DNA of 64,000 nt from a virus. A program made the translations under genes and the position numbers. The notes beneath the pieces are model-generated. The model ran no database searches and had not been told where the DNA came from. It was given only the letters and a program-made list of their open reading frames with translations. Below, piece by piece: positions 3,973 through 57,780 of the stretch. Location of the stretch: the IMG/VR virus record IMGVR_UViG_3300025101_000026, positions 20-64,019 of that record, one strand, 5' to 3'. Every line of letters begins with the position of its first letter. The stretch's first letter is position 1.

Positions 3973-4419
3973 ATGAAAATAAATCAATTAAGGAAAATAA
4001 TAAAAGAAGAAGTAAAATCTGCTATTAAAGAAGAGTTACAAGATTTATTAACTGAAGCAGTTAAAATAGCAAGTAAACCTGAAACAAATAATAACAGATA
4101 CAAACCAGTTACACAAAAAGATATAAAACAAACCTGGTCTACAGGCAAAATGAGCTCAGGCACAACACCTATACAAGAAATGCTTAGTCAGACTAGAGCT
4201 TCAATGACAGGTGAAGAATATAGAAATGTGTTTGCAGGGAATGCAGATATGGTACAAAAGCCTAACTTTGCTTCATCAATGGCAAGTAATATGGGTATGA
4301 CAGATGCTAGAGGACCTATGCCAGGTATGGATATAAGTAAATTAGATTTTGTAAAAAAAGCAGGAGCTGTGTATAACAAATCAGTAGAAAAAGATAAACA
4401 AAAATACGGAGTAGCATAA
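3973..4419 (+). CDS. Hypothetical protein with MKI..L..IIKEE leader (putative internal virion protein)
   Basis: MKINQLRKIIKEEVKSAIKEELQDLLTE; TATTTATA immediately upstream. Confidence 0.55.
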   Translation: MKINQLRKIIKEEVKSAIKEELQDLLTEAVKIASKPETNNNRYKPVTQKDIKQTWSTGKMSSGTTPIQEMLSQTRASMTGEEYRNVFAGNADMVQKPNFASSMASNMGMTDARGPMPGMDISKLDFVKKAGAVYNKSVEKDKQKYGVA

Positions 4420-4420
4420 A

Positions 4421-4831
4421 ATGGCATTTAATAGTAGAAAAATAAATCCTTTAGATTTACAACCTAGAAAAGCTATAGGTGTTTCTCTACCGCTTTCTGG
4501 CAAAGCAGTTTTTAACCAAACGTTTCAAACTAAAGATGCTATAAGAACTAACCTGATTAATTATTTTTTAACTGGACAGGGAGAAAGATACTTAAACCCG
4601 ACTTTTGGTACTGAAATAAGGAACTTAATGTTTGAAAATATAACACAAGAAATGGTTAGTAGAGTAAAAAGCACAGTACAAAGAGGATTAGCAGAGTTCT
4701 TTCCATCAGTACAACCTACTGATTTTGAAGTTACAGGTAATCCTGATACTAATACGGTTTCGTTATTATTAAGATATGCAATCCAAGATACCAATATTGA
4801 AGATGAGGTATTAATAAATTTTGAGCAATAA
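4421..4831 (+). CDS. gp25: Baseplate wedge subunit, gp25-like
   Basis: DAIRTNLINYFLTGQGERYLNPTFGTEIRNLMFE is the typical GPW/gp25 signature; adjacent to gp6. Confidence 0.85.
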   Translation: MAFNSRKINPLDLQPRKAIGVSLPLSGKAVFNQTFQTKDAIRTNLINYFLTGQGERYLNPTFGTEIRNLMFENITQEMVSRVKSTVQRGLAEFFPSVQPTDFEVTGNPDTNTVSLLLRYAIQDTNIEDEVLINFEQ

Positions 4832-6657
4832 TGGCTGAAAAAAGAGACATAAAATACGTAGCTAGAGAATTTTCTGATTATAAACAGGAACTAATAGAAT
4901 TTGCTAAGAACTACTTTCCTGATAGTTATAACGACTTTTCACCTACTTCTCCCGGTATGATGTTTATAGAAATGGCTGCATACGTAGGAGATATACTATC
5001 TTTTTATCAAGATACACAGCTACAAGAGACTTTCTTACAGTATGCCAAGGATCCTAGCAACCTATATACTATGGCGTATATGATGGGGTACCGTCCTAAA
5101 GTTACTAACGTTTCCGAAGTTGAACTATCAGTAACTCAGAACGTAGGAGCCGATCCAACAACTAATCAACCTAATTGGAATCAAGCTTTGGTAGTAAATG
5201 AAAACGCTATAGTAACATCAACTTCTACAGGTAATGCAAATTTTTTCATAGAAAATAAAATAGACTTTTCTTTTTCTAGCTCTTTTGATCCTACCGACGT
5301 GGTAATAACTACTCTAGAGGGAGGAGTACCTAGTGAATTTTTACTTACTAAAAAAATTAAAGCTTTCTCAGGAGATATCAAGACAGTTACTGAAACCTAT
5401 ACAACTGCAGAAAAATTTGCTACAATTACTATCGAAGATACTAATATTATAGGAGTATTAGAAATTACAGATGATAGTAGCGATGAAGTTACTAAATGGA
5501 ATGAAGTACCTTTTTTAGGACAAGATACTGTTTTTGTTCAAGAATCAAACGTAGGTAGTGATTCAGATAAAGTACCTAATTCTATTAAATTGCAAAAAGT
5601 ATCTAAAAGATTTGTAACTAGATTTAATTCTAGCGGAAATCTAATAATTCAGTTTGGAGCTGGTACAGTAGGGGCTGATGATAGTACTTTTACACCTGAT
5701 CCTACTAATGTAGGTATGGGGACCTTACAAGGACTAAGCACTATCGATAAAGCTTATGATCCATCCAATTTTATGTATACTCAAACATATGGTTTAGCTC
5801 CTTCTAATTCTACATTGACTATAAAATACTTAGTAGGAGGAGGGGTAGAAGCTAATGTTCCTGCAAATACTCTAACAGGCTTTACAGCTACATCTACAGC
5901 AGTAGACACAACTTATCAAAATACCCTAGCTTTCAATAACCCGCAACCGGCATCAGGCGGAAAAGACGGAGATACTATAGAAGAAATAAGACAAAATTCA
6001 CTCCGTTCATTTTCAGAACAGAAAAGAACAGTTACCTTACAAGATTACACAGTTAGAGCACTTTCGTTAGATCCTAAATTTGGTACAGTAGCTAAAGTAT
6101 TTGTTACTCAAGACGAATTGAACAGTACTCAGTCTACTACTGATTCTATAATTGATAGTAACCCTCTTGCTTTATCTCTTTATGTACTGGGTTACGATGC
6201 TAATAAAAAGTTAGTAACTGCTACCGATACTTTAAAAAATAATTTAAGAACTTATATGTCGTTCTATACACCTATTACTGACGCTCTCAATATAAAAGAT
6301 GCATTCGTAGTAAATGTAGGTATTAATTTCGATATATTAGTTAGACCTAATTACAATAGTAGAGACGTACTTTTAGCTTGTAATAATACTTTACAAGAAT
6401 ACTTTGATATTTCCAGGTGGAATATAAATCAACCTATCAATATTTCTAGTATATATAGTTTATTAGATAGAGTTGTTGGAGTGCAGACGGTAAGTAAAAT
6501 AGAAATAATTAATAAACAAGGAGGAAATTATTCTCAATATGCTTATGATATTAAAGGAGCTACTCGTAATAATATAGTATATCCTTCATTTGATACGATG
6601 ATTTTTGAACTTAAATTTCCTAATTTTGATATAAAAGGAAGAACTACAACATTATAA
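4831..6657 (+). CDS. gp6: Baseplate wedge subunit, gp6/baseplate-J-like
   Basis: DFSPTSPGMMFIEMAAYVGDILSFYQD, GYRPK, IQFGAG, ASGGKDGDTIEEIRQNS...RTVTLQDY. Confidence 0.85.
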   Translation: MAEKRDIKYVAREFSDYKQELIEFAKNYFPDSYNDFSPTSPGMMFIEMAAYVGDILSFYQDTQLQETFLQYAKDPSNLYTMAYMMGYRPKVTNVSEVELSVTQNVGADPTTNQPNWNQALVVNENAIVTSTSTGNANFFIENKIDFSFSSSFDPTDVVITTLEGGVPSEFLLTKKIKAFSGDIKTVTETYTTAEKFATITIEDTNIIGVLEITDDSSDEVTKWNEVPFLGQDTVFVQESNVGSDSDKVPNSIKLQKVSKRFVTRFNSSGNLIIQFGAGTVGADDSTFTPDPTNVGMGTLQGLSTIDKAYDPSNFMYTQTYGLAPSNSTLTIKYLVGGGVEANVPANTLTGFTATSTAVDTTYQNTLAFNNPQPASGGKDGDTIEEIRQNSLRSFSEQKRTVTLQDYTVRALSLDPKFGTVAKVFVTQDELNSTQSTTDSIIDSNPLALSLYVLGYDANKKLVTATDTLKNNLRTYMSFYTPITDALNIKDAFVVNVGINFDILVRPNYNSRDVLLACNNTLQEYFDISRWNINQPINISSIYSLLDRVVGVQTVSKIEIINKQGGNYSQYAYDIKGATRNNIVYPSFDTMIFELKFPNFDIKGRTTTL

Positions 6658-29235: not shown

Positions 29236-29370
29236 ATGGCTAAAATAGTACTTAGCGATTACTTAGGTTCTAAGAGTAGAAAAAGACCAGGTATACACGC
29301 TAAAAGTAAAACATCTAAGCTTAAAAATAGTAGAAACTATAAAAAAGCTTATAAAGGACAAGGTAGATGA
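29236..29370 (+). CDS. 44-aa highly basic peptide (missing from ORF track)
   Basis: MAKIVLSDYLGSKSRKRPGIHAKSKTSKLKNSRNYKKAYKGQGR. It fills the gap exactly, and its TGA overlaps the next ATG (ATGA). Confidence 0.65.
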   Translation: MAKIVLSDYLGSKSRKRPGIHAKSKTSKLKNSRNYKKAYKGQGR

Positions 29371-37146: not shown

Positions 37147-37159
37147 TGAACTGTAAAGA

Positions 37160-38267: not shown

Positions 38268-38273
38268 TTTATT

Positions 38274-39074: not shown

Positions 39075-39697
39075 TATTAACAGATAATAAACTTAATGAA
39101 AAAGCCTGTTTTACAGAGCCTACGTTAAATATAGATACTCTAATAGATAATAATAGCGTAGACTTATTTGATCAAAACGGATATCATTTAACTAAAGCTG
39201 AACAAGCTTATTTGCAATACAACGGATACAAACCAATTGAAAGGAGACATGAAGACTGTCTTAGATATGATTGGTTAGTCTGGGATAAAAGAGAAGGTGC
39301 TCATATAAACCATTCTGATTTATTTGAAAGAAAAGGGTTTGATGAAGATGCTAAAAAACAGTTATTAGAAATAGCTAAAATTAACCCTATGTTGTATAAA
39401 CTTATCAAAATGAAACCTAAATGGGGTATAGATATTTCTATAGATTACGTATCTGAAAACGCAGTATTTGAAGTTTTTCATTACGAATGGGATTCTTTTA
39501 ATTATAACGCTGTAATAGAAAAAAAACAAGAAATAGAAGAATTTATGTTATCAAAAGATTGGGATGATATTGCAATAACTCTTTGGAAAAAGAAAGATGA
39601 GTGGTATGATTTAGATTTCTTTGATCAAACTCAATGGAGAACTGATTATTTCGGACTATCCCCTGAAAACTTTAAAAACGTTATTTGGGAAGATTAA
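39065..39697 (+). CDS. Hypothetical protein
   Basis: 210-aa aromatic/acidic ORF overlapping the upstream gene. Confidence 0.55.
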   Translation: MSMILTDNKLNEKACFTEPTLNIDTLIDNNSVDLFDQNGYHLTKAEQAYLQYNGYKPIERRHEDCLRYDWLVWDKREGAHINHSDLFERKGFDEDAKKQLLEIAKINPMLYKLIKMKPKWGIDISIDYVSENAVFEVFHYEWDSFNYNAVIEKKQEIEEFMLSKDWDDIAITLWKKKDEWYDLDFFDQTQWRTDYFGLSPENFKNVIWED

Positions 39698-39703
39698 TCT
39701 ATT

Positions 39704-39711
39704 TATTTATA
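39704..39711 (+). promoter_or_regulatory. Putative late promoter TATTTATA
   Basis: Intergenic, before ATG 39735. Confidence 0.55.
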
Positions 39712-39734
39712 TAGCTATATTAAACTGACATATA

Positions 39735-41816: not shown

Positions 41817-41817
41817 T

Positions 41818-42423
41818 ATGAAAGTTAAACATCTAAAAGAATTAATAGAAGAAGCATACATACAAGTTCTTAGAGAAGCTGAAGAACCTAAACCTGAAGA
41901 TCCTATAGGGGACCAGGAAGCAAGTGATGAAACAGTTTTAGAGGATGCTACTGATACAATGTTAGAAAAGTTCCCTACTCTTAAAAAAACTTTAACTAAA
42001 TTAATGACTGAGGATTTCAAAGAGTTTGTAGATACTATAGATTGGGTATCGCCAAAACCTACAACCTTTAGAGTTAATTTAGTAAACGGCCAAGACTTTA
42101 CTTTAAAATGGACCGGTAATAATTTTCAAGCACAAATATTAGGTAAAAGATACATGCTAGGATTCATTAGTGAATTCCAACAAGCATTAGATAAATTAGC
42201 ACGTTTGTATCAAGAAGCACCTCTTAAAGGAGCTGGAGAAGGCGACGCTGAAAGTAGTCCTGAAGCTGATTTCGGCGGAGGTGGCGGAGGCGGAGATTTC
42301 CCCGGTGAAGAAGGTGGAGGAGCAGATGCTGCTTTTGATGATGCAGGTGGTGAAGAAGGTGGAGGAGCTGATTTAGGCGGAGAAGAAATAGACTTCGAAG
42401 CAGGAGAAGAACCAGAAGCATAA
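41818..42423 (+). CDS. Hypothetical protein with leader and Gly/Glu/Asp tail (start probably 41818, not 41773)
   Basis: MKVKHLKELIEEAY begins just after the upstream stop; low-complexity GGGGGGDFPGEEGGG tail. Confidence 0.55.
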   Translation: MKVKHLKELIEEAYIQVLREAEEPKPEDPIGDQEASDETVLEDATDTMLEKFPTLKKTLTKLMTEDFKEFVDTIDWVSPKPTTFRVNLVNGQDFTLKWTGNNFQAQILGKRYMLGFISEFQQALDKLARLYQEAPLKGAGEGDAESSPEADFGGGGGGGDFPGEEGGGADAAFDDAGGEEGGGADLGGEEIDFEAGEEPEA

Positions 42424-43607
42424 TGAACCTTATAGATAAAGTCATATTAGAATGGTCGTACCAGACCAAGAAAGGATACCCTGATCTTAATAATAAAGAA
42501 GATTTAAAGGTATTTGAATCTATGTTCGGCTTTAATATCAACGAAGCAATATATAATAAGAGTAAATCAATAGCTGCAGCAAAAGATTTTGCAGATAGTC
42601 CAGCGGCAGAAAAACTTAATATCTTTAAATTTAAATCGGGTAAATACGAAAACAGATTAAATTCAACAGAAGTAAAAGATTTTAATACTCTTAAAACTCT
42701 TCTAATGAAACATTTTAATCTTGAAGAAAAAGATGTAATATTTCATAATAAAGGAGAAGGATTAGCCTCAAGAGATTCAGTTCCAGGATTCCAATTAAAT
42801 ACAAAAAAATACGGTGATGTTTATATAGCTATAAGCACTGGTAGAAAAGGAACCGGAGGATTAAAAGCAGAAATATCTCTTACTAACGGTATAAATAACA
42901 TTACTAAAAATATTGAAGTAATTACCGTAAAGTTAGAAAGTAGTAAAAGAAATGTAGTGATTGACGGAGTAATGTCAGCAAAAAGAGTTGGGTCTCAAAC
43001 AGCAGATGGATCTAAAGCAGACGTTTCTCTTTACTCACAACCAGAAGGAAAAGGTACTCCTATAGCTAATATTTCAGTTAAAGAAGACGGTAAAAGTGAA
43101 TCTGAATTTAGATGGGCCTCTGTAAATAATGATAAAACTCCTTTTAGAAAAGGATTTGTAAATAAAGCGTTAAACGATCCCAATTTTCCTATAGAGTTAA
43201 AAAGAACAGGACATCATTTAGATACCGATAAATCTCCTAAATATGAAATGTTTAAAAAAGGAACTAATGAAAGAATTACTATAGTAGTAGTAAAAAACGC
43301 TCCTACTGATGCTAATGAAGATTATTTATTTGGTACTGATCAACCTAAAACAATAATTGCTACAAGATCATTTGAAGATAAAGATTTTGAATATGATGAT
43401 AATACGAGAGTATTGACTATAACTTGTACTTCATTATACACCGATATAGACCAAATTCAGGATACAAATATTGAACCTGCATTTACTATTACTCAGCATC
43501 AAAAACAACCGTATGGATTAGACTTTAGAATAGTACCTAAAGGTATGGCTAGTTATGGTCCAAACGCAAAAGGAATAGATATAGAATATTCAACAGTTTT
43601 TAAGTAA
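42423..43607 (+). CDS. Hypothetical protein, possible PD-(D/E)XK nuclease fold, with leader
   Basis: KAE...SKADVSLY...NISVKE pattern; N-terminal MNLIDKVILEWSY. Confidence 0.4.
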   Translation: MNLIDKVILEWSYQTKKGYPDLNNKEDLKVFESMFGFNINEAIYNKSKSIAAAKDFADSPAAEKLNIFKFKSGKYENRLNSTEVKDFNTLKTLLMKHFNLEEKDVIFHNKGEGLASRDSVPGFQLNTKKYGDVYIAISTGRKGTGGLKAEISLTNGINNITKNIEVITVKLESSKRNVVIDGVMSAKRVGSQTADGSKADVSLYSQPEGKGTPIANISVKEDGKSESEFRWASVNNDKTPFRKGFVNKALNDPNFPIELKRTGHHLDTDKSPKYEMFKKGTNERITIVVVKNAPTDANEDYLFGTDQPKTIIATRSFEDKDFEYDDNTRVLTITCTSLYTDIDQIQDTNIEPAFTITQHQKQPYGLDFRIVPKGMASYGPNAKGIDIEYSTVFK

Positions 43608-43610
43608 GTT

Positions 43611-45185
43611 ATGGCAAAAGATATTAAAAAAATAATAGCACAGGAGTATATTAAATGTGCTAAAGATCCGGCGTACTTTATGAGAAAGTATTGCCATATA
43701 CAACATCCTACTAGAGGTAGAATACTCTTCAACTTATACCCTTTTCAATCAGAGGTTCTACATTTATTTAAAGAACATCAATATATCATTACTTTAAAAT
43801 CAAGACAGCTAGGTATATCAACTTTAGCTTCTGCTTATAGTTTATGGTTAATGCTCTTTCATAAAGATAAAAACGTATTAGCTCTAGCAACTACTCAAGC
43901 AACAGCTAGAAATCTTGTTACTAAGACAATGTTTATGTATGATGAGTTACCTAAGTGGTTGAAGTTACCCGCATTAGAAAAAAATAAATTATCTCTTAGA
44001 CTAAAAAACGGATCAAAAATTACAGCAAAATCATCTAATGCAGATGCTGCAAGATCTGAAGCAGTATCATTACTTTTGATAGATGAGGCAGCGTTTATAG
44101 ATAATATTGCCGAAACCTTTACAGCTGCACAACAAACGTTAGCTACAGGAGGTCAGTGTATGGCTTTATCAACTCCTAATGGTATAGGAAACTGGTTCCA
44201 TCAAACTTGGGATAAAGCAGAAGCTGGAGATAATTCGTTTTTACCTATAAGACTACCATGGACGGTTCATCCGGAAAGAGATAAGGAATGGAGAGAACAG
44301 CAAGATAGAGACTTAGGACCTAGAATGGCAGGACAAGAATGTGATTGCGATTTTCTAGCTTCAGGTGATACAGTATTCGAACCAGATGACTTAAGTTTTT
44401 ATGAACAAACTTATCAAAAGGATCCTGTAGAAAAAAGAGGAGTTGACGGTAATTTGTGGATTTGGGAGCAACCTGACTACTCTAAATCATATATGGTAGT
44501 AGCTGATGTATCTAGAGGAGACTCAGTAGATTATTCAGCGTTTCATGTATTTGATATAGAAACTTGTGTACAAGTAGGAGAGTATAAAGGCAAATTATCT
44601 CCTAAAGATTTCGGAAATGTACTTGTAGCTATAGCAGCTGAATATAACGATGCTTTACTAGTAGTAGAAAATGCAAACATAGGCTGGGCGACTATAGAAC
44701 AAATATTAGAAAGAGAATATCGTAATTTATACTATAGTCCTAAAAGTCAAATGGACACAGTAGAATCTTATATGACTAAATATGAGAGAGATCAACTAGT
44801 ACCTGGATTTACTATGTCAGTTAGAACCCGTCCTTTAGTTATAGCTAAGATGATGGAGTATATAAGGGAAAAAGGGGTGACTATTCAATCTAAACGATTG
44901 ATGGGAGAAATGAGAGTTTTTGTATGGAAAAACGGTAAAGCTCAAGCTCAAACTAATTATAACGATGATTTACTAATGTCTTGTGCAACTGCACTATATG
45001 TTAGAGATACAGCGTTAAAACTAAGACAACAAGGTATGGACCTTGCTAGAGCAAGACTTTCTTCGTTTCAAAACTTAAATGCTCGTAACCAATCTGTCAT
45101 ATCATCAGTTGGATCCCAAATAAATAATCCTTATATTATAAAGACGGACCATGGAAATGAAGATATCTCATGGTTAATTAGATAA
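43611..45185 (+). CDS. gp17: Terminase large subunit
   Basis: KSRQLGIST (Walker A), LLLIDEAAF (Walker B), STPNG, VVADVSRG..DYSAF, NDDLLM. Confidence 0.92.
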   Translation: MAKDIKKIIAQEYIKCAKDPAYFMRKYCHIQHPTRGRILFNLYPFQSEVLHLFKEHQYIITLKSRQLGISTLASAYSLWLMLFHKDKNVLALATTQATARNLVTKTMFMYDELPKWLKLPALEKNKLSLRLKNGSKITAKSSNADAARSEAVSLLLIDEAAFIDNIAETFTAAQQTLATGGQCMALSTPNGIGNWFHQTWDKAEAGDNSFLPIRLPWTVHPERDKEWREQQDRDLGPRMAGQECDCDFLASGDTVFEPDDLSFYEQTYQKDPVEKRGVDGNLWIWEQPDYSKSYMVVADVSRGDSVDYSAFHVFDIETCVQVGEYKGKLSPKDFGNVLVAIAAEYNDALLVVENANIGWATIEQILEREYRNLYYSPKSQMDTVESYMTKYERDQLVPGFTMSVRTRPLVIAKMMEYIREKGVTIQSKRLMGEMRVFVWKNGKAQAQTNYNDDLLMSCATALYVRDTALKLRQQGMDLARARLSSFQNLNARNQSVISSVGSQINNPYIIKTDHGNEDISWLIR

Positions 45186-45189
45186 ACGA

Positions 45190-45197
45190 TATTTATT
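45190..45197 (+). promoter_or_regulatory. Putative late promoter (TATTTATT variant) before portal
   Basis: Intergenic, before ATG 45212. Confidence 0.45.
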
Positions 45198-45211
45198 AAT
45201 AAACTGTATTA

Positions 45212-47134
45212 ATGGCAGATACTTCACTTTTTAAACGATTAGGCAGACTTTTTTCTTCAGACGTAGTAATAAGAAACGTAGGAGGAAACCAACTTAAAGT
45301 AGCCGATGTTAATCAAATACAAACTACAGGTAGATATAAAACTAATTCTCTTATAGATAGGTTTAGTAGATTATATTTGTATAACAATAAAAATATATTT
45401 AATCCTAACCTTAATTATCAAACTTTAAGAATACAGTTATATTCTGATTATGAAGCTATGGACACTGACCCGTTAATAGCATCAACACTAGATATTATTT
45501 CAGATGAAGCTACTTTAAAAAACGATATGGGTGAAGTTTTAACTATAAAATCTTCAGATGAGAATATTCAAAAAATACTTTACAACCTTTACTACGATGT
45601 ATTAAATATTGAATTTAATTTATGGTCATGGACTCGTAACATGTGTAAATACGGAGATTTCTTTTTAAAATTAGAAATCGCTGAAGAGTTCGGAGTATAT
45701 AATGTTATGCCTTATACAGTTTATCATATGACCAGACAGGAAGGTTTAGACCCTGATAATCCTGCTAAAGTAACTTTTCAACTAGATCCTGATGGTTTAG
45801 CATCATCTCAAGATCCAAACTATATTCCTAAAAGTAACAGAAGAGTTATTCAATTCGATAATTATGAAGTAGCCCACTTCAGATTAATATCAGATACTAA
45901 TTACTTACCTTACGGTAGATCTTTTATAGAGCCAGCTAGGAAAATATTTAAACAACTTACTCTTATGGAAGATGCGATGTTAATTCATCGTATTATGAGA
46001 GCGCCTGAAAAGAGAACTTTCTATATAAATGTAGGTCAAATACCTCCTAACGAAGTTGAGCAGTTTATGCAAAAAACTATTACTCAAATGAAAAAAACTC
46101 CTTTCGTTGATCCGAATACAGGAGATTATAATCTTAGGTTCAATATGATGAATATGATGGAAGATTATTATATTCCAATGAGAGGTGGAGATACTCAAAC
46201 TAAAATTGATACTACTAAAGGATTAGATTATGATGGTACTAATGATATAGAATATCTTAGAGATAAAATGTTTGCTGCTCTTAAAGTACCGAAAGCGTAT
46301 TTTGGGTATGAAGGAGATTTACAAGGAAAAGCTACATTAGCAGCTGAAGATATAAGGTTTGCTAGAACAGTTGAAAGAATACAAAGAATTTTAGAATCTG
46401 AATTAACTAAGATAGCTTTAGTACATTTATATGTTCAAGGATTTAAAGGAGAATCATTAACTAATTTTGAAATAAAGCTTACTAATCCTTCTATAATATT
46501 CGAACAAGAAAAGGTAGCACTCTTAAAAGAAAAAGTAGATTTAGCTTCCCAGATGATGGATACTAAATTATTTCCAACTGATTATATATACGACCATATA
46601 TTTAATCTGTCTGAAGACCAGTATATGGAAATGAGAGACTTAGTAGCTGAAGATTATAAACGTATCTTTAGATTAGGTCAAATTGAAAATGAAGGTAATG
46701 ACCCTGCTAAATCTGGCAAATCGTACGGTACTCCTCATGATCTAGCTTCTTTATATGGTAGAAGACAAGGAGATCAAAAAGGTATGCCTTTTGGAAGAGT
46801 TCCTGCAGGATATGAAGATGATACTCCTGGTATAGGTAAAATAGGACCTGAAGGAGGACGTCCTAGAATTCATGCTTCACATTACGGTACTAACGATGGT
46901 TTAGGAGGTAGAGATCCTCTTGGACAGGATGCAATGAAAGGAGGCTTCGATTCTGATAACGAAAACGTTAACGAAAACGAATCAAGCAAAAAAATAGATA
47001 ATACACTTGCTAGATCTTTATTTTATCAAAACAAAGAAATGTTTAATGATAAAAAGCAAATAATTTTTGAAAATAAAGACGAAGAAGAAGATAATTTATT
47101 AGATGAATCACAAATACAAGATTTAGATAATTAA
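45212..47134 (+). CDS. gp20: Portal protein (T4 gp20-like)
   Basis: KQLTLMEDAMLIHRIMRAPEKRTFYINVG, MMEDYYIP.RGG, LKVPKAY, EDIRFARTVERIQ. Confidence 0.92.
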   Translation: MADTSLFKRLGRLFSSDVVIRNVGGNQLKVADVNQIQTTGRYKTNSLIDRFSRLYLYNNKNIFNPNLNYQTLRIQLYSDYEAMDTDPLIASTLDIISDEATLKNDMGEVLTIKSSDENIQKILYNLYYDVLNIEFNLWSWTRNMCKYGDFFLKLEIAEEFGVYNVMPYTVYHMTRQEGLDPDNPAKVTFQLDPDGLASSQDPNYIPKSNRRVIQFDNYEVAHFRLISDTNYLPYGRSFIEPARKIFKQLTLMEDAMLIHRIMRAPEKRTFYINVGQIPPNEVEQFMQKTITQMKKTPFVDPNTGDYNLRFNMMNMMEDYYIPMRGGDTQTKIDTTKGLDYDGTNDIEYLRDKMFAALKVPKAYFGYEGDLQGKATLAAEDIRFARTVERIQRILESELTKIALVHLYVQGFKGESLTNFEIKLTNPSIIFEQEKVALLKEKVDLASQMMDTKLFPTDYIYDHIFNLSEDQYMEMRDLVAEDYKRIFRLGQIENEGNDPAKSGKSYGTPHDLASLYGRRQGDQKGMPFGRVPAGYEDDTPGIGKIGPEGGRPRIHASHYGTNDGLGGRDPLGQDAMKGGFDSDNENVNENESSKKIDNTLARSLFYQNKEMFNDKKQIIFENKDEEEDNLLDESQIQDLDN

Positions 47135-47138
47135 TTAC

Positions 47139-47146
47139 TATTTATA
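47139..47146 (+). promoter_or_regulatory. Putative late promoter TATTTATA
   Basis: Intergenic, before ATG 47187. Confidence 0.55.
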
Positions 47147-47186
47147 AAGGTAAGGTGTACTATGTGTACAACAAAACAATATAATA

Positions 47187-48041
47187 ATGCGCATTAAACA
47201 TAGTAAGTACAAAAATACTGGGCTAATATTTGAACTATTAGTTAAGCAGATAGCTGCAGATACTTTAAATAAAAAAGACTCTCCAGCTGTCAACATTCTT
47301 AAGAACTTTTATACTGGTAGGTCTACATTCGTACGTGAATTTAAATTATATGAATTTATCTTAAAAAATAAATCTATTTCACAGTCAAAAGCAGAGTCTA
47401 TAGTTTCTACCATAATTGAAGTATCGCGAAATATTAACCCATCGTTATTAAAAAAGCAAAAATATAATTTAATAAAAGAGATTAAAAATCACTATAGTTT
47501 AGAAGAATTTTTCTCTATTAGTGTGAAAGATTATAAACCATTAGCAGCTCTATACTGTTTGATGGAAGCTCATAAAATTTCTGATGTAGTTGATCCTAAT
47601 TTTTTAGTAGATAATAAAACTACTATATTAGAACATTTAACTAAGGAAGTACAAAATAAAAAAGAAGTAAGAGATAACTTAATAGAAGAGTACGGTAAGT
47701 ATGACAAAGATCTTAAATTATTAACTTTTAAGATTCTATTAGAAAAATTTAATTCTAAATATGAAACACTACTTCCCGAACAAAAAAATATCTTAAAAGA
47801 ATTTATTACATCAGTTGATTCTTCTACTAGACTACGTAATTTAGTCAATGAGGAATTATTAAAATTAAAAAAAGTAATAAATACTTTAAAAGACGCAGTA
47901 AAAGATGATATTGTTGCTATAAAGTTACAAGAAGTAGCTAAAACTATTGAACCTATTTCTAAAACTAAAAGAGTAACTGATGATCATCTTGTAAATATTA
48001 TGACTTACTACGAACTAGTTCAAGAATTAAAAGGATTATGA
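47187..48041 (+). CDS. Conserved-looking head-module protein of unknown function
   Basis: IKHSKYKNTGLIFELLVKQI; between portal and protease; TATTTATA upstream. Confidence 0.55.
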   Translation: MRIKHSKYKNTGLIFELLVKQIAADTLNKKDSPAVNILKNFYTGRSTFVREFKLYEFILKNKSISQSKAESIVSTIIEVSRNINPSLLKKQKYNLIKEIKNHYSLEEFFSISVKDYKPLAALYCLMEAHKISDVVDPNFLVDNKTTILEHLTKEVQNKKEVRDNLIEEYGKYDKDLKLLTFKILLEKFNSKYETLLPEQKNILKEFITSVDSSTRLRNLVNEELLKLKKVINTLKDAVKDDIVAIKLQEVAKTIEPISKTKRVTDDHLVNIMTYYELVQELKGL

Positions 48042-48277
48042 AAATTAGTCAATTAAGAGAATTAGTTAAAGAAGTAATGCAAGAGATGAATGAAATGAGT
48101 ACTACTGCAGGAGCAGGTGCTTATCATACTCCTTTTGCTTTCAGTAAAAACCAAAGAAAAAATAGAGCTACTAAGTATGGTGAGAAGCTCGGTTATATTA
48201 CAGTAAAAAGAAAAAAAAGACCATACAATACAAAAATGATTGATTATTTAGATGAAAACTCTACAAGAAAAATATAA
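48038..48277 (+). CDS. Small head-module protein with leader
   Basis: [19 protein letters not shown] followed by [15 protein letters not shown] and a basic tail. Confidence 0.55.
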
Positions 48278-50741
48278 CGCTATACAAGAAGGTAATTATA
48301 GCAAGACTCAATTCGTAAGAGACGCTAAAAGAGAATTACCTCAATTTATTTCTCCTTATAATGGATTTGAAGATTCAATTACTATACTTAAAAGAAAAGG
48401 TATATTAACTGAAAATAAAACTTTAGAGTACGACATACCGGGAAAAAAATATTCTGATGAGGCACTAAGAAGAGGTGTAGATTATGAACTAGAAGGAATG
48501 GGTTTAATGTCTCAAGAAACTATATCTGAAAAAGATTTTTTCAAAGCTGAGAAAAAAGCTAAGAAAAATTTAGAAAAAGATCCTCTACACTACCTTAACT
48601 TACTATCAGGAGAATCTAATAAAGTCAATAAGCATGATAAAATGATACCTGTTAAAAAAAATAATCACGTAGATGTTTTTAACGGGTTGAAAAAAGCTAA
48701 CTTAAGAGAAGTTAAAAGTTTACTAAAAGAAGGCAAAGTTGAGGACTTAGCAAAAAAGCTTAATATATCTGTAGATCAACTACAAGCAGCTATGGATAAA
48801 ATTAGAAAAGGAGAAGAAAGAGCAGCAGACGCAGCAGCTAAAAAAGCTAAATTCTCTGAAGAAGTAGATGAATCAGCATCTAAAAAATTAGATATGATTA
48901 GACAACACCTTCATAAAAAATTTACTGACCCTAATAATCCTAGCAATAAAGTTATTGATGATGAAATGATAGACGGATTCTTTTCAGTAGCTCCTGACAA
49001 TCTTTTAGATATGGATATGGAGGAAGTTGAAAACGAGTACGATCTTTATGTTGATGCTAATTACGATTTAGATGAAAAGAAAGGCAAAGACCATGACGGC
49101 GATGGAGATATAGACTCAGATGATTATATGGCTGCTAAAGACAAAGCTATTAAAAAAGCAATGGGCAAAGATGTTGAAGAAACTAAAGGAGCTCCAAAAG
49201 GACATTACTTTACTAAATCAGGTAACTTAGTAAAAGGTAAACTAACACCCGATGCTAGAGAAAGAGGTGCTAGATTAAGTGATCCATTAGATAAACAAAG
49301 ATCTAAAGTACCTCCAGTAACTCAATACAACGAAGGAGATTTAGACGTTGGTCATCAAGATGATGAGCCAGATATGCTTAAGCAGTATGCTTATGATATA
49401 GCAACATATGGAGCTAAATTATATAAAAGATTACATAAGTATGATCAAATGGATGGAGAAGTTGATTTTCCAAACTGGTGGCAAGCTAAAGTAATTTTAG
49501 CTAGAGATTATATTTCAAAAGCTCAACATTATTTAGAATTTGAAGAAAAACAACCTGCTATAGATCAAATGGCCTTAGAAGAAGGTAGACGTAGAAAGAT
49601 GAAAGGTGGTAAAGTAGTAACTGAAAACGATTATGAAACTGGAGGATATGTAGAGTCTATGGCACCAATGCTTGAAAAGGCAGTAAGACAGTTAGAAGCA
49701 GTATGGGAAGAGTGGAAAGCTGGACCAGCAACTGAAGCTGCTATGGTACCTCATGCGAAAAAAGATCTAATCAATTATTTAGAAAGCAGAATATCGATGG
49801 GCGAAGAAGTGATAGATGAAGTCTCCGAAGAGGATGAAAAAGTCAAAGAAGCTTTTAAATCTATTATAACTAAAGTTCTTCAAGAAGAAATAATTAACGA
49901 AGCAGCTACAGAAAATTTATCTAAAATGGCTAATCAATATAATGATTTCGAAGGTATGCAAGCAGCTGTAAATGATTTAGAGAATATAGTTACTGATGTA
50001 GAGTCTTATTATGCAAAAACAAAAGATAAAATTCAAAAAGTATACGATAGCTTTAAAGATATCAAAAATACTGAAGGATTAGTTATAGGACCTATGTTAG
50101 GACCTGCAATTGAAACTGCTTTTAGAAAAGATTTGATGCCTGTAACCGAAAAAGGATTTACTAGAGGTTTAGAAATGCCTAAGGTAAAAATGCTTGAAAC
50201 TGATGGAATAGAGGAAGAAGAGTTAGAAGAAAAAGAAACAGTATTTAAACCTATTAATGAAGCTTTAAATAAAGAATTAAGAAAATTTGGACCTGATTTG
50301 AAGAAAAGACTAGAAGCTGCAGGATTTAAAACAGGTTTATTCTCAGGAGAAAATATGGTTCCAGTAGAAGCTCAAAAGAAAATACAAAATGACCCAAGTT
50401 TAGCAGGTATTGCATATAATAAATACCCTGATGGATATGAATTTCTTGAAGTATCAGTTAATAAATCTAAAGCTGATGAGTTAGTAAAAGTTGCAAAATA
50501 CTTTTCAACACCTGAAGGTCAATATGGACCAGATAAAGATGCAGGATGGGTTGTTAAAAACGTTCGTAATGTGAATCCTGGAGACATTTATAGAAGTAAA
50601 TTGGGAGGAATGAATAATTTAGCTACTATTACTTATTTTAGAGCAGAAGAAGCAGGTAGTAGAATGGGTACTGATAAAATAAAATCTACAGATAAAATAG
50701 CTGCAGAAGGTAAGAAGTATAAATACTCTAAAAGAAAGTAA
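48252..50741 (+). CDS. Large charged modular protein (putative prohead core/internal polyprotein)
   Basis: MKTLQEKY start (compare T4 CTS MKTYQEF), many (L/I/V)-x-E junctions, [12 protein letters not shown] Ca-binding-like motif. Confidence 0.55.
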
Positions 50742-50744
50742 ACT

Positions 50745-51323
50745 ATGGCAAATGTATTAGTAAATGTAACACCGTTCAAACCTATTCTTCGAGAATCTAA
50801 GGAAAGACCTGGAGTATTTGAAGTAGAAGGAGTTATGCAAAGAGCTGGTGCAAAGAACCAAAACGGAAGAATATACGAAAAAGAACTTTTAGAAAGAGAA
50901 GTTGAAAAGTATATGGAAGAGTTTGTTAAGAATGGAAACGCTTTCGGCGAACTAGATCATCCTGAATCTGCTGTAGTATCTTTAAAAAATGCATCTCACG
51001 TAGTAAAAGATTTACATTGGGATGGAGATGATTTAATGGGTAAGGTAGAATTACTTAATACTCCTGCAGGTAATATAGTAAAAGAAATTATTAAAGCTGG
51101 TCATACTATAGGTATTTCATCTAGAGGTACTGGATCAGTTCAACAAACAAACGAAGGGTATTTAGAAGTTCAACCAGACTTCGAACTAGTTTGTTGGGAT
51201 TTCGTATCTAACCCTTCTACTCATGGAGCATTTATGAACCCTGTATCGTTAAACGAAGGAAAAGCTTTAGCAGACAAATTTGCTAAAGTTAACAGTTTAA
51301 TTAACGATATACTCAGATCCTAA
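50745..51323 (+). CDS. gp21: Prohead protease (T4 gp21-like)
   Basis: NQNGRIY, GELDHP, GISSRGTGS, WDFVSNPST. Confidence 0.9.
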   Translation: MANVLVNVTPFKPILRESKERPGVFEVEGVMQRAGAKNQNGRIYEKELLEREVEKYMEEFVKNGNAFGELDHPESAVVSLKNASHVVKDLHWDGDDLMGKVELLNTPAGNIVKEIIKAGHTIGISSRGTGSVQQTNEGYLEVQPDFELVCWDFVSNPSTHGAFMNPVSLNEGKALADKFAKVNSLINDILRS

Positions 51324-51829
51324 TGAAACTTTCTCAAATTATATTTGAAAACGATGAAAAAGAACTAGCTTTAAGTTTTAAAGCGGCTTTGGATAAAGAA
51401 ATGGAAGATGGTAAACTCGATGAGATTGCCATTTCAGCATTAGGTGTATTGACTTGGGCTTTAGCATCTAATACAGTACTAAACATGCTAGGTAAATATG
51501 CTAGCAAAAAGTTAAAGAAAATAGGTTTTGATAAAACTGCTGATAAAGCATCTGCATTACAAAACTGGGCTCATAACAATGAACAAAACTTTATTAGATT
51601 TATAGGAGGGATTATTAGCCCTTTCGTAAAAGATGTCCAGAAAAGAAAAACAGTGGCTAAAGGATTATTTTTATTAGTATTAGTTGGTTTAGGTATAAAA
51701 GCGGGGGTTGGAGTAGCTAAAGCATTAAAAGCTACGAGTGCTAGTAGTGCTACAGTAGCAGCTCTTAAAGGTGCATTAAAAGGTAGAGATATAGCTAATA
51801 TAGGAAAAGAATTAGCTGCAGCACTTTAA
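51323..51829 (+). CDS. Hydrophobic/amphipathic protein with MKLSQIIFE leader
   Basis: Charged leader to LDE, then IAISALGVLTWALAS and GLFLLVLVGLGIKAGVGVA hydrophobic segments. Confidence 0.55.
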   Translation: MKLSQIIFENDEKELALSFKAALDKEMEDGKLDEIAISALGVLTWALASNTVLNMLGKYASKKLKKIGFDKTADKASALQNWAHNNEQNFIRFIGGIISPFVKDVQKRKTVAKGLFLLVLVGLGIKAGVGVAKALKATSASSATVAALKGALKGRDIANIGKELAAAL

Positions 51830-51956: not shown

Positions 51957-53291
51957 ATGGCAAACAAAGATTTATTCAAGCAAGCTATTGCTGAAGCTAA
52001 ATCTGTAAGAGAAGCCGCTATTGCTAACGCTAAAGAAGCTTTAGAAGAGACTTTAACTCCTCATCTTAAAGATATGTTAGCTGCTAAACTTCAAGAGATG
52101 GAAGATTCCACTGTAGAAGAAGAAGTAGTAAACGAAATCGAAGGAGAGGTAGAAGAAGGAATGGATAAAGACAAAAAAGACGAAGCTATAGAGGAAGATA
52201 TTGCAGAAGTAGAAGAAGCAATGGAAGGCGAAGATGATGCTGACCATGATTCAGAAGAATCTGATGAGGAAGCAGAAGACGATCTAGAGGTAAAAGACAT
52301 GGAAGTCGACGACCTTAAAGACCTAATTCGTGATATCATAGCACAGGAAATGGGCGATGGAGCAGCTGACGATGAACTCCCAGTTGATGACATGCCTGCT
52401 GATGATATGGTAGGAGCGGATGACGAAGAAGAAATCGACTTAGACGAACTTCTTAAAGAAATCGCTGAAATATCTGAAGAAGATAAGAAAGAAAAAAAGA
52501 TGGAAGAAGAAGTAGAAGAAGGTAAGAAAGAAGAAATGGACGAAGCTAAACATGACGACGACATGGATGAGGCTATGCACCACGACAAAAAAGACGAGGC
52601 TATGCATCATGATAAAAAAGATGAAGCAATGCACGACGACAAAGAAAAAATGGAAGAAGCACCACTTAACGAGTTTGGCGGTGTTGATCCTGTTACTGTT
52701 GCATTAGGTATTGCAGCTGTCTTTGGAGGATCTGCTCTTACTGTAAAGCTAATGGATGACGCTAAAGCTGGTAAGTATGGTGATATGGGTAAAAAGATTG
52801 CAGCACATTTTGAAGAAATGGGCAAAGCAGCTGGAGACGCAGTACATCACCGTAGAGAAGAAGTAGAAGAAGCTATGAAAGATAAGGACATGGACGAAGC
52901 AATGAAAGACAAGGACATGGACGAAAATACTGAATTAGAAGAAGCTATGGAAACTATTACTAACTTAAAAGGTCAACTACAAGAAGTTAATCTTCTAAAT
53001 GCTAAGTTACTTTATGTAAATAAAGTCTTCAAAGCAAATAATTTAACTGAATCTCAAAAAGTAAATGTTATCGCTGCATTCGATAAAGCTGAGACAGTTA
53101 AAGAAGTAAAATTAGTATTCGAGACTGTTGCTGATAATGTAGTTACTAAATCTACAAAAAGCACAATCAAAGAAGCTAAATTAGGTATGGCTAGTAAAGC
53201 TACAGGAACAACTGCTTCTAAACCAGAAGTAATTGCAGAAGTAAGCGATACTGTCAGAAGAATGCAAAAATTAGCTGGAATTATTAAATAA
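51957..53291 (+). CDS. Prohead scaffold/core protein (gp22-like)
   Basis: Highly acidic coiled coil between protease and MCP; EVNLLNAKLLYVNK and RMQKLAGIIK at the C-terminus. Confidence 0.75.
   Translation: MANKDLFKQAIAEAKSVREAAIANAKEALEETLTPHLKDMLAAKLQEMEDSTVEEEVVNEIEGEVEEGMDKDKKDEAIEEDIAEVEEAMEGEDDADHDSEESDEEAEDDLEVKDMEVDDLKDLIRDIIAQEMGDGAADDELPVDDMPADDMVGADDEEEIDLDELLKEIAEISEEDKKEKKMEEEVEEGKKEEMDEAKHDDDMDEAMHHDKKDEAMHHDKKDEAMHDDKEKMEEAPLNEFGGVDPVTVALGIAAVFGGSALTVKLMDDAKAGKYGDMGKKIAAHFEEMGKAAGDAVHHRREEVEEAMKDKDMDEAMKDKDMDENTELEEAMETITNLKGQLQEVNLLNAKLLYVNKVFKANNLTESQKVNVIAAFDKAETVKEVKLVFETVADNVVTKSTKSTIKEAKLGMASKATGTTASKPEVIAEVSDTVRRMQKLAGIIK
52536..52661 (+). repeat. Imperfect tandem repeats encoding DEAMHHDKK-like units in the scaffold
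   Basis: MDEAKHDDD MDEAMHHDKK DEAMHHDKK DEAMHDDKEK; also EAMKDKDMD twice near 52868-52924. Confidence 0.75.
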
Positions 53292-53314: not shown

Positions 53315-55015
53315 ATGGAAATTAATCAATTATTAGAAGGGTCTAACAACTTCAAGAACGTACAAGCTGATGCTGCACGTCTTGCTGATAAGTGGGCTCA
53401 ATCTGGACTCTTAGAAGGATATTCTAACGAGATCGAGAAAAATAACATGGCTATGATCTTAGAAAACCAAGCAAAGCAAATCGTTGCAGAGCAATCATCT
53501 AACAATCAAGGTGGTGCTTCTCACGGTGGTGGAGCTGGTGAGCAGTGGGCAGGAGTTGCTTTACCTTTAGTAAGAAAGGTATTCGCTCAAATCGCTGCTA
53601 AAGACTTTGTATCAGTACAGCCAATGAACCTTCCTTCAGGTCTAATTTTTTACTTAGACTTTAAGTATGGTACTAGTACTGCGAATAATCAATTCGAAGC
53701 ACTAGATAATATGTACGGTAACGTATCTACTGCTCTTTCAAAAATGGAAGAAGATATCGACGTAAAAGGTGGATTATATGGAGCAGGAAGATTTGCTTAC
53801 TCTGTAAGTTCATCTATAAAAGCAGGTTTACAAATGCAAGCGAACTCAGCTGCTTTAGCAACTACTAAGTTCCAAACTGCTTCTGTAAACTTAAATTCAG
53901 ATTTTTACAGATTTAATTTTGACCAAGACTTTTCATCATCTATTGCTGCATTAGGAAGTGGTTCACAAGTTAAAGCTGTAACAGTTTTAAGTTCAGACTT
54001 AGAGCGTCCTGATTTAACTGCATTAAGAGCTTTCAACTTAGAAAGTACAAATGCTGGAGATGTACAAGAAGTATTCGGTAAGTTAACTAAGCACGATCCT
54101 GCTACTAACGTAATAACGTTCATCGTTATTGAATCAGCAGCAGCAGCGATTGATAGTAATACAAGACTTACAGTATCAGCACCTACTCAGCCAACTGAGA
54201 ACCAAAGAGGTGACTTTGAAGACAATCCTGCAGGTGCTATCAGCATCCCAGAAATCAACGTAGAGCTTTCTTCAGAAGCTATTGTTGCTAAAACTAGAAA
54301 GTTAAAAGCACAATGGACTCCAGAATTTGCTCAAGATCTTAACGCTTACCACAGTATTGATGCTGAGGCTGAGTTAACTTCTTTATTGAGTGAGTATATC
54401 TCAATGGAAATTGATCTAGAGATTTTAGGTATGTTAATTGAAAATGCTGTAACAACTGAAAGATGGTCAGCTTCAAGTAACAAAGTATGGGGCGGATCAA
54501 CAACTGCTGCAGGTGGTGCTTGGACAACTAGCGCTGTAGATGGCGGTGGATACTATAATACTCAAGGACAGTGGTTCCAAACTTTAGGAACTAAAATCCA
54601 AAAAGTATCTAACAAAATTCATCAAAAAACTCTTAGAGGTGGAGCTAACTTCTTAGTTGTATCTCCAACAGTTTCAACTATCCTAGAATCTATTCCAGGA
54701 TATGCAGCTGGAGATCCAGGTGATAAGATGGATTACGCTTTCGGAGTACAGAGAGTAGGTCAATTTAACGGAAGATATAAAGTATATAAGAACCCTTATA
54801 TGACTGAAAACACAATCCTTATGGGATACAGAGGTTCTCAGTTCTTAGAGACTGGTGCGGTATATGCTCCTTATGTTCCATTAATGATGACTCCTCTAGT
54901 ATACGATCCAAATACCTTTACACCAAGAAAAGGTATCATGACTCGTTATGCTAAGAAGATGATCAGACCAGAATTCTACGGTAAGATTTTTGTTAGCGAT
55001 GTAGCTACTATCTAA
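53315..55015 (+). CDS. gp23: Major capsid protein (T4 gp23-like)
   Basis: VSVQPMNLPSGLIFYL, AKTRKLKAQWTPEFAQDLNAYH, VYAPYVPL, GIMTRYA. Confidence 0.95.
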   Translation: MEINQLLEGSNNFKNVQADAARLADKWAQSGLLEGYSNEIEKNNMAMILENQAKQIVAEQSSNNQGGASHGGGAGEQWAGVALPLVRKVFAQIAAKDFVSVQPMNLPSGLIFYLDFKYGTSTANNQFEALDNMYGNVSTALSKMEEDIDVKGGLYGAGRFAYSVSSSIKAGLQMQANSAALATTKFQTASVNLNSDFYRFNFDQDFSSSIAALGSGSQVKAVTVLSSDLERPDLTALRAFNLESTNAGDVQEVFGKLTKHDPATNVITFIVIESAAAAIDSNTRLTVSAPTQPTENQRGDFEDNPAGAISIPEINVELSSEAIVAKTRKLKAQWTPEFAQDLNAYHSIDAEAELTSLLSEYISMEIDLEILGMLIENAVTTERWSASSNKVWGGSTTAAGGAWTTSAVDGGGYYNTQGQWFQTLGTKIQKVSNKIHQKTLRGGANFLVVSPTVSTILESIPGYAAGDPGDKMDYAFGVQRVGQFNGRYKVYKNPYMTENTILMGYRGSQFLETGAVYAPYVPLMMTPLVYDPNTFTPRKGIMTRYAKKMIRPEFYGKIFVSDVATI

Positions 55016-56265: not shown

Positions 56266-56275
56266 TTTATAAATT

Positions 56276-57475
56276 ATGGCTGAAATTCAAATATGGGACG
56301 GTACTACTAATTTCGTAGCCGGGGAGTCTACTCCTTTCGGATTTTACGATGATGATTTAGCATTTCAAGAAGATGCTCCTAAAGTAGCTCGTTACTGTGC
56401 TGAAAAGCTTGGGTATCCTGTATTGGATATAGAGCTTAATGAAAAACAATTTTATACTGCTTTTGAAGAAGCTGTAACTGCTTACGGTAAAGAAGTAATA
56501 GAAGCCATAGCAGCTGAAACAGTATCAAGTCAAATCGGAGGTTCAGCTTCAGGAACTGCTGTTAATCAAACTTTATTCAAACCTAGTTTAAAAAGTGTAA
56601 TAGAAACTAGTAAGCAGTACGGTATGGAAGCTGGTGTAGGAGGAGATGTAGATATGAAAAGTGCTCTGATAGATTTAGTAGCTAATCAACAACAGTATGA
56701 TTTAGAAACTTTGATAGACGATGGAGATATAGAAATAAGAAAAATATTTTATGAAGCACCACCAGCTATTTTAAGATACTTTGACCCTTATGCTGGTACA
56801 GGTACAGGTATTCAATCACTAATGGATGCATTTGATTTCGGTTCATTTAGTCCTGGTGTAAATTTCTTATTAATGCCTGCATCTTATGATATGTTAAAAG
56901 TACAGGCTATAGAATTCAACGATCAAATAAGAAGATCAGCATATTCGTTCCAAATAAATAATAATAAGTTAAGAATATTTCCTGTTCCAAAAGAAGCAGG
57001 TAAATTAAGAGTTGAGTATTATAGAGTAGACGATAAAACTTACGATACTAATGACGGTGTAGATTTTGAAGCAAGTGCTAATACACAAGGTTCGGTATCA
57101 GGAACAGGAGGAAGTACAGGTACTACAGGAGTCTCAACTAATATATCAAACGTAAATGCTCAAAATTTAGTATATACTGAAATAAATGCTATTGGTAGAC
57201 AATGGATATTCAAATATACAGTGGCTACTTGTAAAGAAATGCTAGCGTATATTAGAGGTAAGTACCAAACAGTACCAGTACCAGGAGCTGAAGTAACTAT
57301 GAATGCAGCAGATTTGCTAGCTGATGCAAGAGAAGAGAAAGTATTTTTAGTAGAAGACTTGAAAGCTACTATGCAAACAGCTTCTATGACTAATCAATTA
57401 GAATTAGCAGCTACTCAAACTAAATTTATTAACGATGCAATGCAAGGAGTACCTATGCACATCTATATAGGATAA
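56276..57475 (+). CDS. Neck protein (gp13-like head-tail adaptor)
   Basis: KLGYPVLDIELNEKQ...FEEA, WIFKYTVATCKEMLAYIRGKY, VTMNAADLL; located after the capsid genes. Confidence 0.7.
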   Translation: MAEIQIWDGTTNFVAGESTPFGFYDDDLAFQEDAPKVARYCAEKLGYPVLDIELNEKQFYTAFEEAVTAYGKEVIEAIAAETVSSQIGGSASGTAVNQTLFKPSLKSVIETSKQYGMEAGVGGDVDMKSALIDLVANQQQYDLETLIDDGDIEIRKIFYEAPPAILRYFDPYAGTGTGIQSLMDAFDFGSFSPGVNFLLMPASYDMLKVQAIEFNDQIRRSAYSFQINNNKLRIFPVPKEAGKLRVEYYRVDDKTYDTNDGVDFEASANTQGSVSGTGGSTGTTGVSTNISNVNAQNLVYTEINAIGRQWIFKYTVATCKEMLAYIRGKYQTVPVPGAEVTMNAADLLADAREEKVFLVEDLKATMQTASMTNQLELAATQTKFINDAMQGVPMHIYIG

Positions 57476-57780
57476 TGAAATTAATAAACATAATATCAGA
57501 AATACAGTTTTCTATTTACCAAGCAATGGTTAGAATAGGACATTCTGAAGATGTAACCGTACAGGATATAGGAGAAATGCTTAGAGCCATGCCCGGAGTT
57601 TTAACCGTAGGTCAGGTATCTCACGATAGTAATAATAATACTGCTATTATGAAAGTTAAGCTTTTAACAACTAAACCTGCTAGTGAAGCTTTTTCTTCAT
57701 TTAAAAATACTTCTATAAAAAGAATACCTGAAGTAAAAAGAGTAGAAGTAGCTGAAAAAACAATTGAAAAGAAAAAATAA
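57475..57780 (+). CDS. Small protein with MKLINIISE leader
   Basis: 101 aa; ferredoxin-like alpha/beta pattern (IGEMLRAMPGVLTV). Confidence 0.5.
   Translation: MKLINIISEIQFSIYQAMVRIGHSEDVTVQDIGEMLRAMPGVLTVGQVSHDSNNNTAIMKVKLLTTKPASEAFSSFKNTSIKRIPEVKRVEVAEKTIEKKK

Follow-up and report, generated by a model that had tools for sequence, protein, structure and literature searches.

Genome context and leader-bearing genes

The 64,000-nucleotide stretch of viral DNA analysed here (positions 20 to 64,019 of IMG/VR record IMGVR_UViG_3300025101_000026; hereafter the window) encodes a set of unrelated proteins that begin with short, closely similar N-terminal leaders ending in (I/L)-x-Glu. The window makes up nearly all of a 64.3 kb viral contig with approximately 32% G+C, and all of its genes lie on the plus strand. 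It belongs to a T4-like myovirus, the host group of this phage and its clade being the marine Bacteroidota, and among cultured phages the syntenic Flavobacterium phage vB_FspM_immuto (MW353175; 160 kb; host Flavobacterium sp. LMO8; hereafter immuto) is its closest relative. At least 598 IMG/VR contigs encode a closely similar terminase (86–93% identity among the matches listed), thus the clade is abundant in the environment. The head module runs in the order terminase (43611), portal (45212), 284-amino acid (aa) protein, 79-aa protein, 829-aa protein, Peptidase_S77 protease (50745), 168-aa protein, scaffold (51957) and major capsid protein (MCP; 53315). Genes are referred to by their start positions in the window.

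The first-pass annotation of the window had described one common leader on about 16 proteins, quoting 15 examples, and every N-terminus that it quoted is indeed encoded where it had been placed. However, there is not one leader. The leaders span 9–13 residues and fall into at least three classes: class A, MKLSxIILE; class B, MKxSQLRxxIKE; and class C, MENFDLKKFLxE, found in relatives. Gene 48252 has a leader of its own. Nine of the quoted examples are strong and five (34666, 37794, 42423, 48252 and 35810) are moderate, while the internal MRELIRE of 36157 finds no support as a leader; the count of about 16 was slightly high. The strong examples are the following.

3973–4419, plus strand: 148-aa protein upstream of the baseplate genes; class B leader MKINQLRKIIKE (3973–4008)
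28150–28452, plus strand: 100-aa protein; class A leader MKIKDILLE (28150–28176)
29367–29798, plus strand: 143-aa protein, possibly kinase-like; class A leader MKLSQIILE (29367–29393)
32481–33410, plus strand: P-loop (Zeta_toxin-like) kinase; leader MIELLSLIRE (32481–32510), strong by its family
37160–37807, plus strand: Fe/Mn superoxide dismutase (SOD); class A leader MKLSKLILE (37160–37186)
41818–42423, plus strand: acidic 201-aa protein; class B-like leader MKVKHLKELIE (41818–41850)
48038–48277, plus strand: 79-aa prohead-core candidate in the gp67 position; class B leader of 12 residues (48038–48073)
51323–51829, plus strand: 168-aa basic protein between protease and scaffold; class A leader MKLSQIIFE (51323–51349)
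57475–57780, plus strand: 101-aa conserved protein after the head-completion gene; class A leader MKLINIISE (57475–57501)

Leader sharing among unrelated proteins

The loose pattern [IL]-x-E ending at residues 5–14 occurs at 19 of the 63 N-termini of the window, where 5.9 (from internal windows) or 8.7 (from internal-Met windows) would be expected, and a stricter amphipathic form occurs at 10 of them against an expectation of 0.6–0.9. The same N-terminal pattern is found in the complete immuto genome in 14 of 233 proteins, with approximately 1–1.6 expected. An identical scan of T4, used for calibration, recovers IPII, IPIII, Alt, gp68, gp21, gp22, gp24 and Inh. As DNA ligase, RNase H, the clamp loader and lysozyme are picked up as well, the loose N-terminal (I/L)-x-E is not specific. 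The loose motif is approximately 1.7-fold enriched at T4 N-termini, non-capsid proteins included, and loose-motif statistics were for this reason dropped as the chief argument.

What marks true T4 tags is a near-identical leader on unrelated proteins. In an unbiased all-versus-all comparison of N-termini (residues 2–10), 29367, 37160 and 51323 share MKLS[QK][IL]I[LF]E, and 3973 and 48038 share MKI[NS]QLR. Pair scores are 29–31 for both groups, zero pairs at or above 25 being expected. Applied to immuto, the comparison also recovers signal peptides, which serve as an internal control. The leaders are a genuine feature, well above anything expected by chance.

Across the clade we considered approximately 350 related loci (3 Mb) with 2,661 distinct proteins, clustered on the sequence after residue 20 only. 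The motif is bimodal among the resulting families, being carried by either approximately 90–100% or approximately 0% of members. A class A profile was built over the eight positions up to and including the Glu, from nine families with unrelated bodies and with the tenth held out, and its threshold was set at the 99.9th percentile of an internal-Met null. In this leave-one-family-out design, 62–100% of the members of the held-out family scored above threshold. Class A positives amount to 14 of the 242 body families, five of them outside the training set. Primase, terminase and baseplate proteins had been suggested in the first-pass annotation as controls, and the scan came out clean: among 789 members of terminase, portal, baseplate, primase, PhoH, head-completion and tail-fibre families there is no class A match. 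The 285 T4 proteins yield two marginal matches. Ten further leader-bearing families of the clade were searched against Pfam, with nothing informative found.

Within the window, the class A and B profiles together give 10 matches with approximately 0.1 expected: 3973, 28150, 29367, 37160, 42423, 48038, 51323, 57475, 41818 and the scaffold. Scores are 20 for 29367, 19 for both 37160 (p<1e-4) and 51323, 16.6 for 28150 and 16 for 57475, and class B scores are 22 for both 3973 and 48038 and 11.4, barely above threshold, for 41818. The latter start is the true one, as orthologues begin at that Met, whereas the longest open reading frame (ORF), from 41773, overlaps the preceding gene. Two enzymes, 32481 and the 5'-nucleotidase 34666 (NT5C), are admitted through their families rather than through their own profile scores. 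The whole immuto genome gives seven matches: five hypothetical proteins, the scaffold and NT5C. None of the genes annotated for replication is among them, and NT5C is the sole nucleotide-metabolism enzyme. Predicted carriers in immuto start at MW353175 positions 81525, 102294, 103366, 109856 (NT5C), 113188 and 123355, besides the proteins with a MENFDL leader.

The motif is retained within the individual families. It is present in 65 of 65 distinct orthologue N-termini for 57475, in 41 of 41 for 3973 (97% of whose family pass the held-out profile) and in 17 of 19 for 28150, where [ILV]-x-E is in some cases shifted by one residue. In family alignment A1, that of 29367, the Glu changes register and [IL]-x-E is kept. 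The 32481 kinase (Pfam Zeta_toxin, E 3e-10) has a leader that itself scores weakly; 87% of its family pass the held-out profile, MKLSTLILE and MIKLTDLILE being examples of their leaders. Assignment of 29367 as kinase-like is weakly suggested by motifs found in its family within 143 aa (GSGDYGSVY, AVKV, DIRPDN and KMTD), by a best PDB match to the N-lobe of the minimal effector kinase SteC (E 0.049), and by atlas neighbours that include T7-kinase clusters.

Selection on the leader peptide

In the leaders P4 and P3 are hydrophobic and [ILV]-x-Glu is near-invariant at a fixed position, with P2 and P1' variable. Distinct N-termini lacking [ILV]-x-E number 0 of 65, 0 of 48, 0 of 45 and 0 of 41 within leader families. 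Where the register shifts, the Glu moves and the motif stays, as in ILE|G to LSE|I or LGE|I, and ILLE to ILLKE. Invariant residues are encoded by different synonymous codons (Leu CTA/TTA/CTT/CTC, Arg AGA/CGA/CGT, Lys AAA/AAG), and because this variation is free, selection acts on the peptide rather than on an RNA element located at the start codon.

Leaders are also swapped, homologous bodies carrying different leader classes. The leader is kept in orthologues of 51323, one of which has the class C leader MENSFNLRKFLSE instead, and one homologue of 48252 carries MNNFDLKKFLTE. The swapped leader on these two relatives is MENxFxLxKFLxE, which heads five immuto proteins. The tag is a modular add-on, selected at the peptide level and common to unrelated proteins and prohead-core candidates.

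The sequence MENFDLKKFLVEN is common to the five immuto class C proteins (L002 1803–2318; immuto genome 103806, 117631, 118632 and 125241). Similarity among them runs approximately 13 residues beyond the Glu (NKLTxNSxLL), and the class C leader is therefore longer or two-part.

The superoxide dismutase

One recognisable enzyme is the SOD (37160), which matches Sod_Fe_N (E 7.6e-26; profile positions 1–82 of 82) and Sod_Fe_C (E 5.8e-36; 2–102 of 102). The enzyme domain had been placed immediately after the leader Glu; it does follow the leader closely, starting in Pfam at residue 12, three residues beyond Glu9. Leaders of SOD orthologues differ in sequence and length, and all end in a hydrophobic residue followed by [IL]-x-E. 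Among the closest 20 homologues, all 19 that are N-terminally complete bear a 10–11-residue extension ending LILE, ILLE or ILFE. Beyond these 20, identity falls to 59% or less and reaches the cellular Bacteroidota SODs. The proposed restriction of the extension to phages holds in this comparison, since 86 of 95 cellular SODs begin at the enzyme core (MAFELP; core motif offset 3–6) without it.

The SOD gene is found in three different contexts across phage lineages, with a leader kept in each. In a distant lineage, the order is S77 protease, 47-aa ORF, 281-aa scaffold-like protein, MCP and then a SOD starting MRFSKLSNIILE. One viral SOD is leaderless, and its adjoining genes match no gene of the window. 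No S77 protease was found in that contig; as the contig is only approximately 27% complete, this absence is only suggestive.

At loci L090 and L091, the frame upstream of the SOD leader is open to 356 aa (MEKRKMIKITDILLE...), which reflects either a wrongly called start or an in-frame extension upstream.

Prohead protease and candidate core proteins

Besides 48038, the head module of the window includes the following genes.

48252–50741, plus strand: 829-aa protein in the gp68 position; own 13-residue leader (48252–48290), moderate support
50745–51323, plus strand: gp21-type prohead protease (Peptidase_S77)
51957–53291, plus strand: scaffold (gp22-position) protein; N-terminus MANKDLFKQAIAE
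53315–55015, plus strand: major capsid protein (PHROG 138, E 9e-72)

The gp21 homologue reported at 50745 is confirmed by Pfam (PF03420, E 6e-35) and by a match to the T4 gp21 structure 5JBL (E 4e-23), and the equivalents of the catalytic T4 residues His85 and Ser140 are conserved. Gene 48038 lies between portal and protease, like T4 gene 67. A class B profile trained without the scaffold recognises the N-terminus of the window scaffold and that of the immuto scaffold; the T4 gp22 N-terminus is MLKEQLIAE, and the window scaffold contains 15 [IL]-x-E sites. Gene 48252 matches neither the class A nor the class B profile; its homologues keep [IV]-x-E near residue 13. Gene order, sizes and N-termini of these prohead-core candidates fit T4 gp22, gp67 and gp68. 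As sequence matches to the T4 counterparts are not significant, the gp67-like and scaffold roles are assigned by position and size.

The MCP begins with MEINQLLE. A reading of this stretch as a cargo-type leader was rejected, since alignment puts the cleavage site of T4 gp23 at ..IVAE|QSS near residue 59, the predicted maturation site, and MEINQLLE falls within an approximately 59-residue propeptide homologous to that of gp23.

The conserved 284-aa protein between the portal and gp67-like genes (47187–48041) has 13 [IL]-x-E sites, where its own composition predicts 5.2 (P = 0.0025), and may be a core protein that undergoes cleavage into fragments.

Carriers with moderate support

The four remaining candidates are as follows.

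34666–35211, plus strand: 5'-nucleotidase (NT5C/HAD); leader MNTSIVDLLE (34666–34695)
35810–36157, plus strand: 115-aa protein; MTQKQLLE, ambiguous
37794–38267, plus strand: 157-aa protein; leader MKIIKLIKDLVLE (37794–37832), moderate support
42423–43607, plus strand: 394-aa protein upstream of terminase; MNLIDKVILE (42423–42452), ambiguous

NT5C matches PHROG 2643 (E 3e-22) from residue 21, and 40 of the 42 distinct N-termini among its orthologues retain the motif; in immuto, the orthologue carries another leader of the same pattern. For 37794 the profile p is 0.002, and the motif occurs in all five distinct N-termini of a small family. The motif of 35810 (profile p = 0.008) is found in 35 of 35 distinct N-termini; the conserved helix runs on past the motif, and the first Glu is sometimes substituted. 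Conservation also continues beyond the Glu in 42423 (profile score 11.9). This gene and immuto 116531–117592, each just upstream of terminase, share residues 1–35 alone, at 43% identity, and the N-terminus of 42423 may be a folded N-terminal module.

A probable capsid-targeting and processing system

We propose that these observations are probably explained by capsid targeting and processing of the T4 type, with a cargo set that is enlarged and partly enzymatic. The 9–13-residue N-terminal propeptides would be capsid-targeting tags, each an amphipathic segment that closes with hydrophobic-[I/L]-x-Glu. Such a tag would dock its protein onto the scaffolding core during prohead assembly, and the gp21-type protease (50745) would then cut after the Glu, freeing the mature protein within the head. 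The core set of predicted cargo comprises 29367, 37160, 51323, 28150, 57475, 32481, 34666, 3973, 48038 and 41818. By analogy with T4, we infer core binding, cleavage, presence in the virion and ejection into the host.

We favour this reading because the protease keeps its catalytic residues and the (I/L)-x-E leaders are under peptide-level selection; because primase, terminase, portal and baseplate proteins lack the leaders and the SOD extension is phage-only; and because the gp67-like protein and the scaffold bear the same leader class, with a leader-bearing SOD in a head operon elsewhere. The reading of the leaders as targeting tag plus protease site in the first-pass annotation is in this sense well supported by circumstantial evidence, unlike its single leader and its count of 16.

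Several points weigh against the proposal. The literature search found no virion proteomics of immuto-like phages, nor any other experiment for the clade. The nucleotidase and the P-loop kinase have obvious cytoplasmic roles. BLAST against T4 gp22, gp67 and gp68 gives no significant match for the prohead-core candidates of the window. The enzymes flagged in the T4 scan belong here too: as non-packaged T4 enzymes also bear an N-terminal [IL]-x-E, motif-level matches such as 35810 and 42423 may be ordinary N-terminal helices. A complex prediction for the protease with SOD residues 1–45 scored 0.00 with the partner poorly folded, and is evidence neither way.

A bolder version can be put forward only tentatively. 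In this version the clade loads at least a dozen proteins per genome into the capsid via interchangeable leaders, the active cell-derived enzymes (SOD, 5'-nucleotidase, P-loop kinase and a possible minimal protein kinase) forming a ready-made kit that the infecting particle would deliver. The SOD would then act on entry, or inside the virion, shielding the DNA from oxidative damage.

The alternative that survives best splits the carriers by function. SOD, NT5C and the kinases have plausible roles in the cytoplasm, the window enzymes sit in a variable region beside primase and nuclease genes, and motif-bearing enzymes of T4 need not be packaged. It could be, then, that only head-module proteins (48038, 51323, the scaffold and perhaps 57475 and 3973) are targeted to the core and that the enzymes stay cytoplasmic, their leaders being an inhibitory or regulatory propeptide removable by the protease, or a dimerisation helix. 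We consider this idea unlikely: the leaders of SOD, 29367 and 51323 are near-identical and are matched by one profile, the SOD follows directly after the MCP in another lineage, and T4 gp21 works inside proheads (PMC9026906).

A good deal less probable is that another partner uses the leader for recognition, be it a modifying enzyme, a chaperone or an anchor at a membrane or assembly site, and that the leader has no part in capsid import. Immuto does encode GroEL and GroES, which would suit a chaperone. The modifying-enzyme variant was rejected, there being no radical-SAM or other peptide-modifying candidate in the variable region of the window. The near-invariant Glu with I/L at P3 fits a gp21 site, and the scaffold and gp67-like protein have the same leader class.

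That AT-rich composition, or a general preference for N-terminal amphipathic helices, has produced the pattern with no common function is very improbable. The enrichment of the loose motif at T4 N-termini is what this explanation would predict; the bimodal families, the success of the leave-one-family-out profile, the 789 negative controls and the phage-only SOD extension are not. Least probable of all is an RNA signal just past the start codon, a translational operator or enhancer: although the element sits at the translation start of many genes and T4 RegA-type operators overlap start codons, it was rejected on the synonymous codon variation, and the Glu position shifts between 9, 10 and 12.

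Comparison with known systems

The first 10 residues of T4 IPIII suffice for incorporation into the prohead core, with residues 4 and 7 serving targeting and 8 and 10 processing; the cut falls after Glu, and Asp at position 10 prevents cleavage while leaving packaging intact (PMC9026906, PMC5694885, PMC3012670). Propeptides with a T4 capsid-targeting sequence (CTS) are 10–20 residues long, and their cargo is diverse (PMC9026906, PMC5694885, PMC3012670). The gp21-removed CTS of IPI, IPII, IPIII and Alt resembles the window leaders in being a short N-terminal propeptide on unrelated proteins that ends in (L/I)-x-Glu (PMC9026906, PMC3012670). The likeness extends to a homologous S77 protease and T4-type head gene order in the window phage, and to cargo genes that lie in variable regions, with leaders conserved and bodies exchanged. 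However, the window leaders are unrelated to MKTYQEFIAE, and at least three classes coexist. Carriers number approximately 10–14 in 64 kb, as compared with 4–5 in the whole of T4, and they include enzymes of cellular origin (SOD, 5'-nucleotidase and P-loop kinase).

On the T4 side, gp61.1 (54 aa; NC_000866 18966–19130, minus strand) begins with MKTFKEFIKE, nearly the leader of IPI, IPII and IPIII.

The giant phages phiKZ, 201phi2-1 and SPN3US offer a second parallel, as a gp21-related protease cuts many of their head proteins after Glu and a role in targeting to the prohead is proposed for the propeptides (PMC5694885). Their motif is A/S/G-x-E and their propeptides often exceed 100 residues, whereas the window leaders are T4-sized with I/L at P3.

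T4 and its near relatives already illustrate the principle. The window adds new leader sequences and classes, a new scale (class A alone spans at least 14 body families) and carriers that are recognisable enzymes. Should the leaders function as they do in T4, delivery of proteins in the capsid is a widespread and enlarged strategy of abundant ocean phages and not a T-even curiosity, and a simple sequence rule would predict which of the many uncharacterised genes of phages are at work during the first seconds after infection. Anti-defence functions, such as those of T4 IPI* and Alt, are found among such early-acting capsid-delivered proteins. A packaged SOD, of which the literature search found no report in phages, would be a new kind of bacteriophage virion cargo as far as that search showed, and the leaders would provide a packaging tag for engineering Bacteroidota phages. 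As immuto is a cultured relative, the prediction is directly testable.

Other features of the window

A SegE-type GIY-YIG homing endonuclease (27678–28160; Pfam E 1.3e-27) borders the variable cargo region. Genes 36157, 38274, 39735, 41773 and 48252, together with the scaffold (36157–50741 and 51957–53291 of the window), link into one 356-member BLAST cluster, which points to common short modules or low-complexity segments.

The octamer TATTTATA has 17 copies in the window, 12 of which are placed no more than 60 nt ahead of a gene start. Its sites include the following.

Upstream of 3973, 12334, 13610, 19097, 31549, 35810, 39735, 47187, 55125, 55840 and 60163: TATTTATA

Copies within this distance precede both structural operons and candidate-cargo units (31549 onward, 35810 onward and 47187 onward), which fits a late-promoter-like element.

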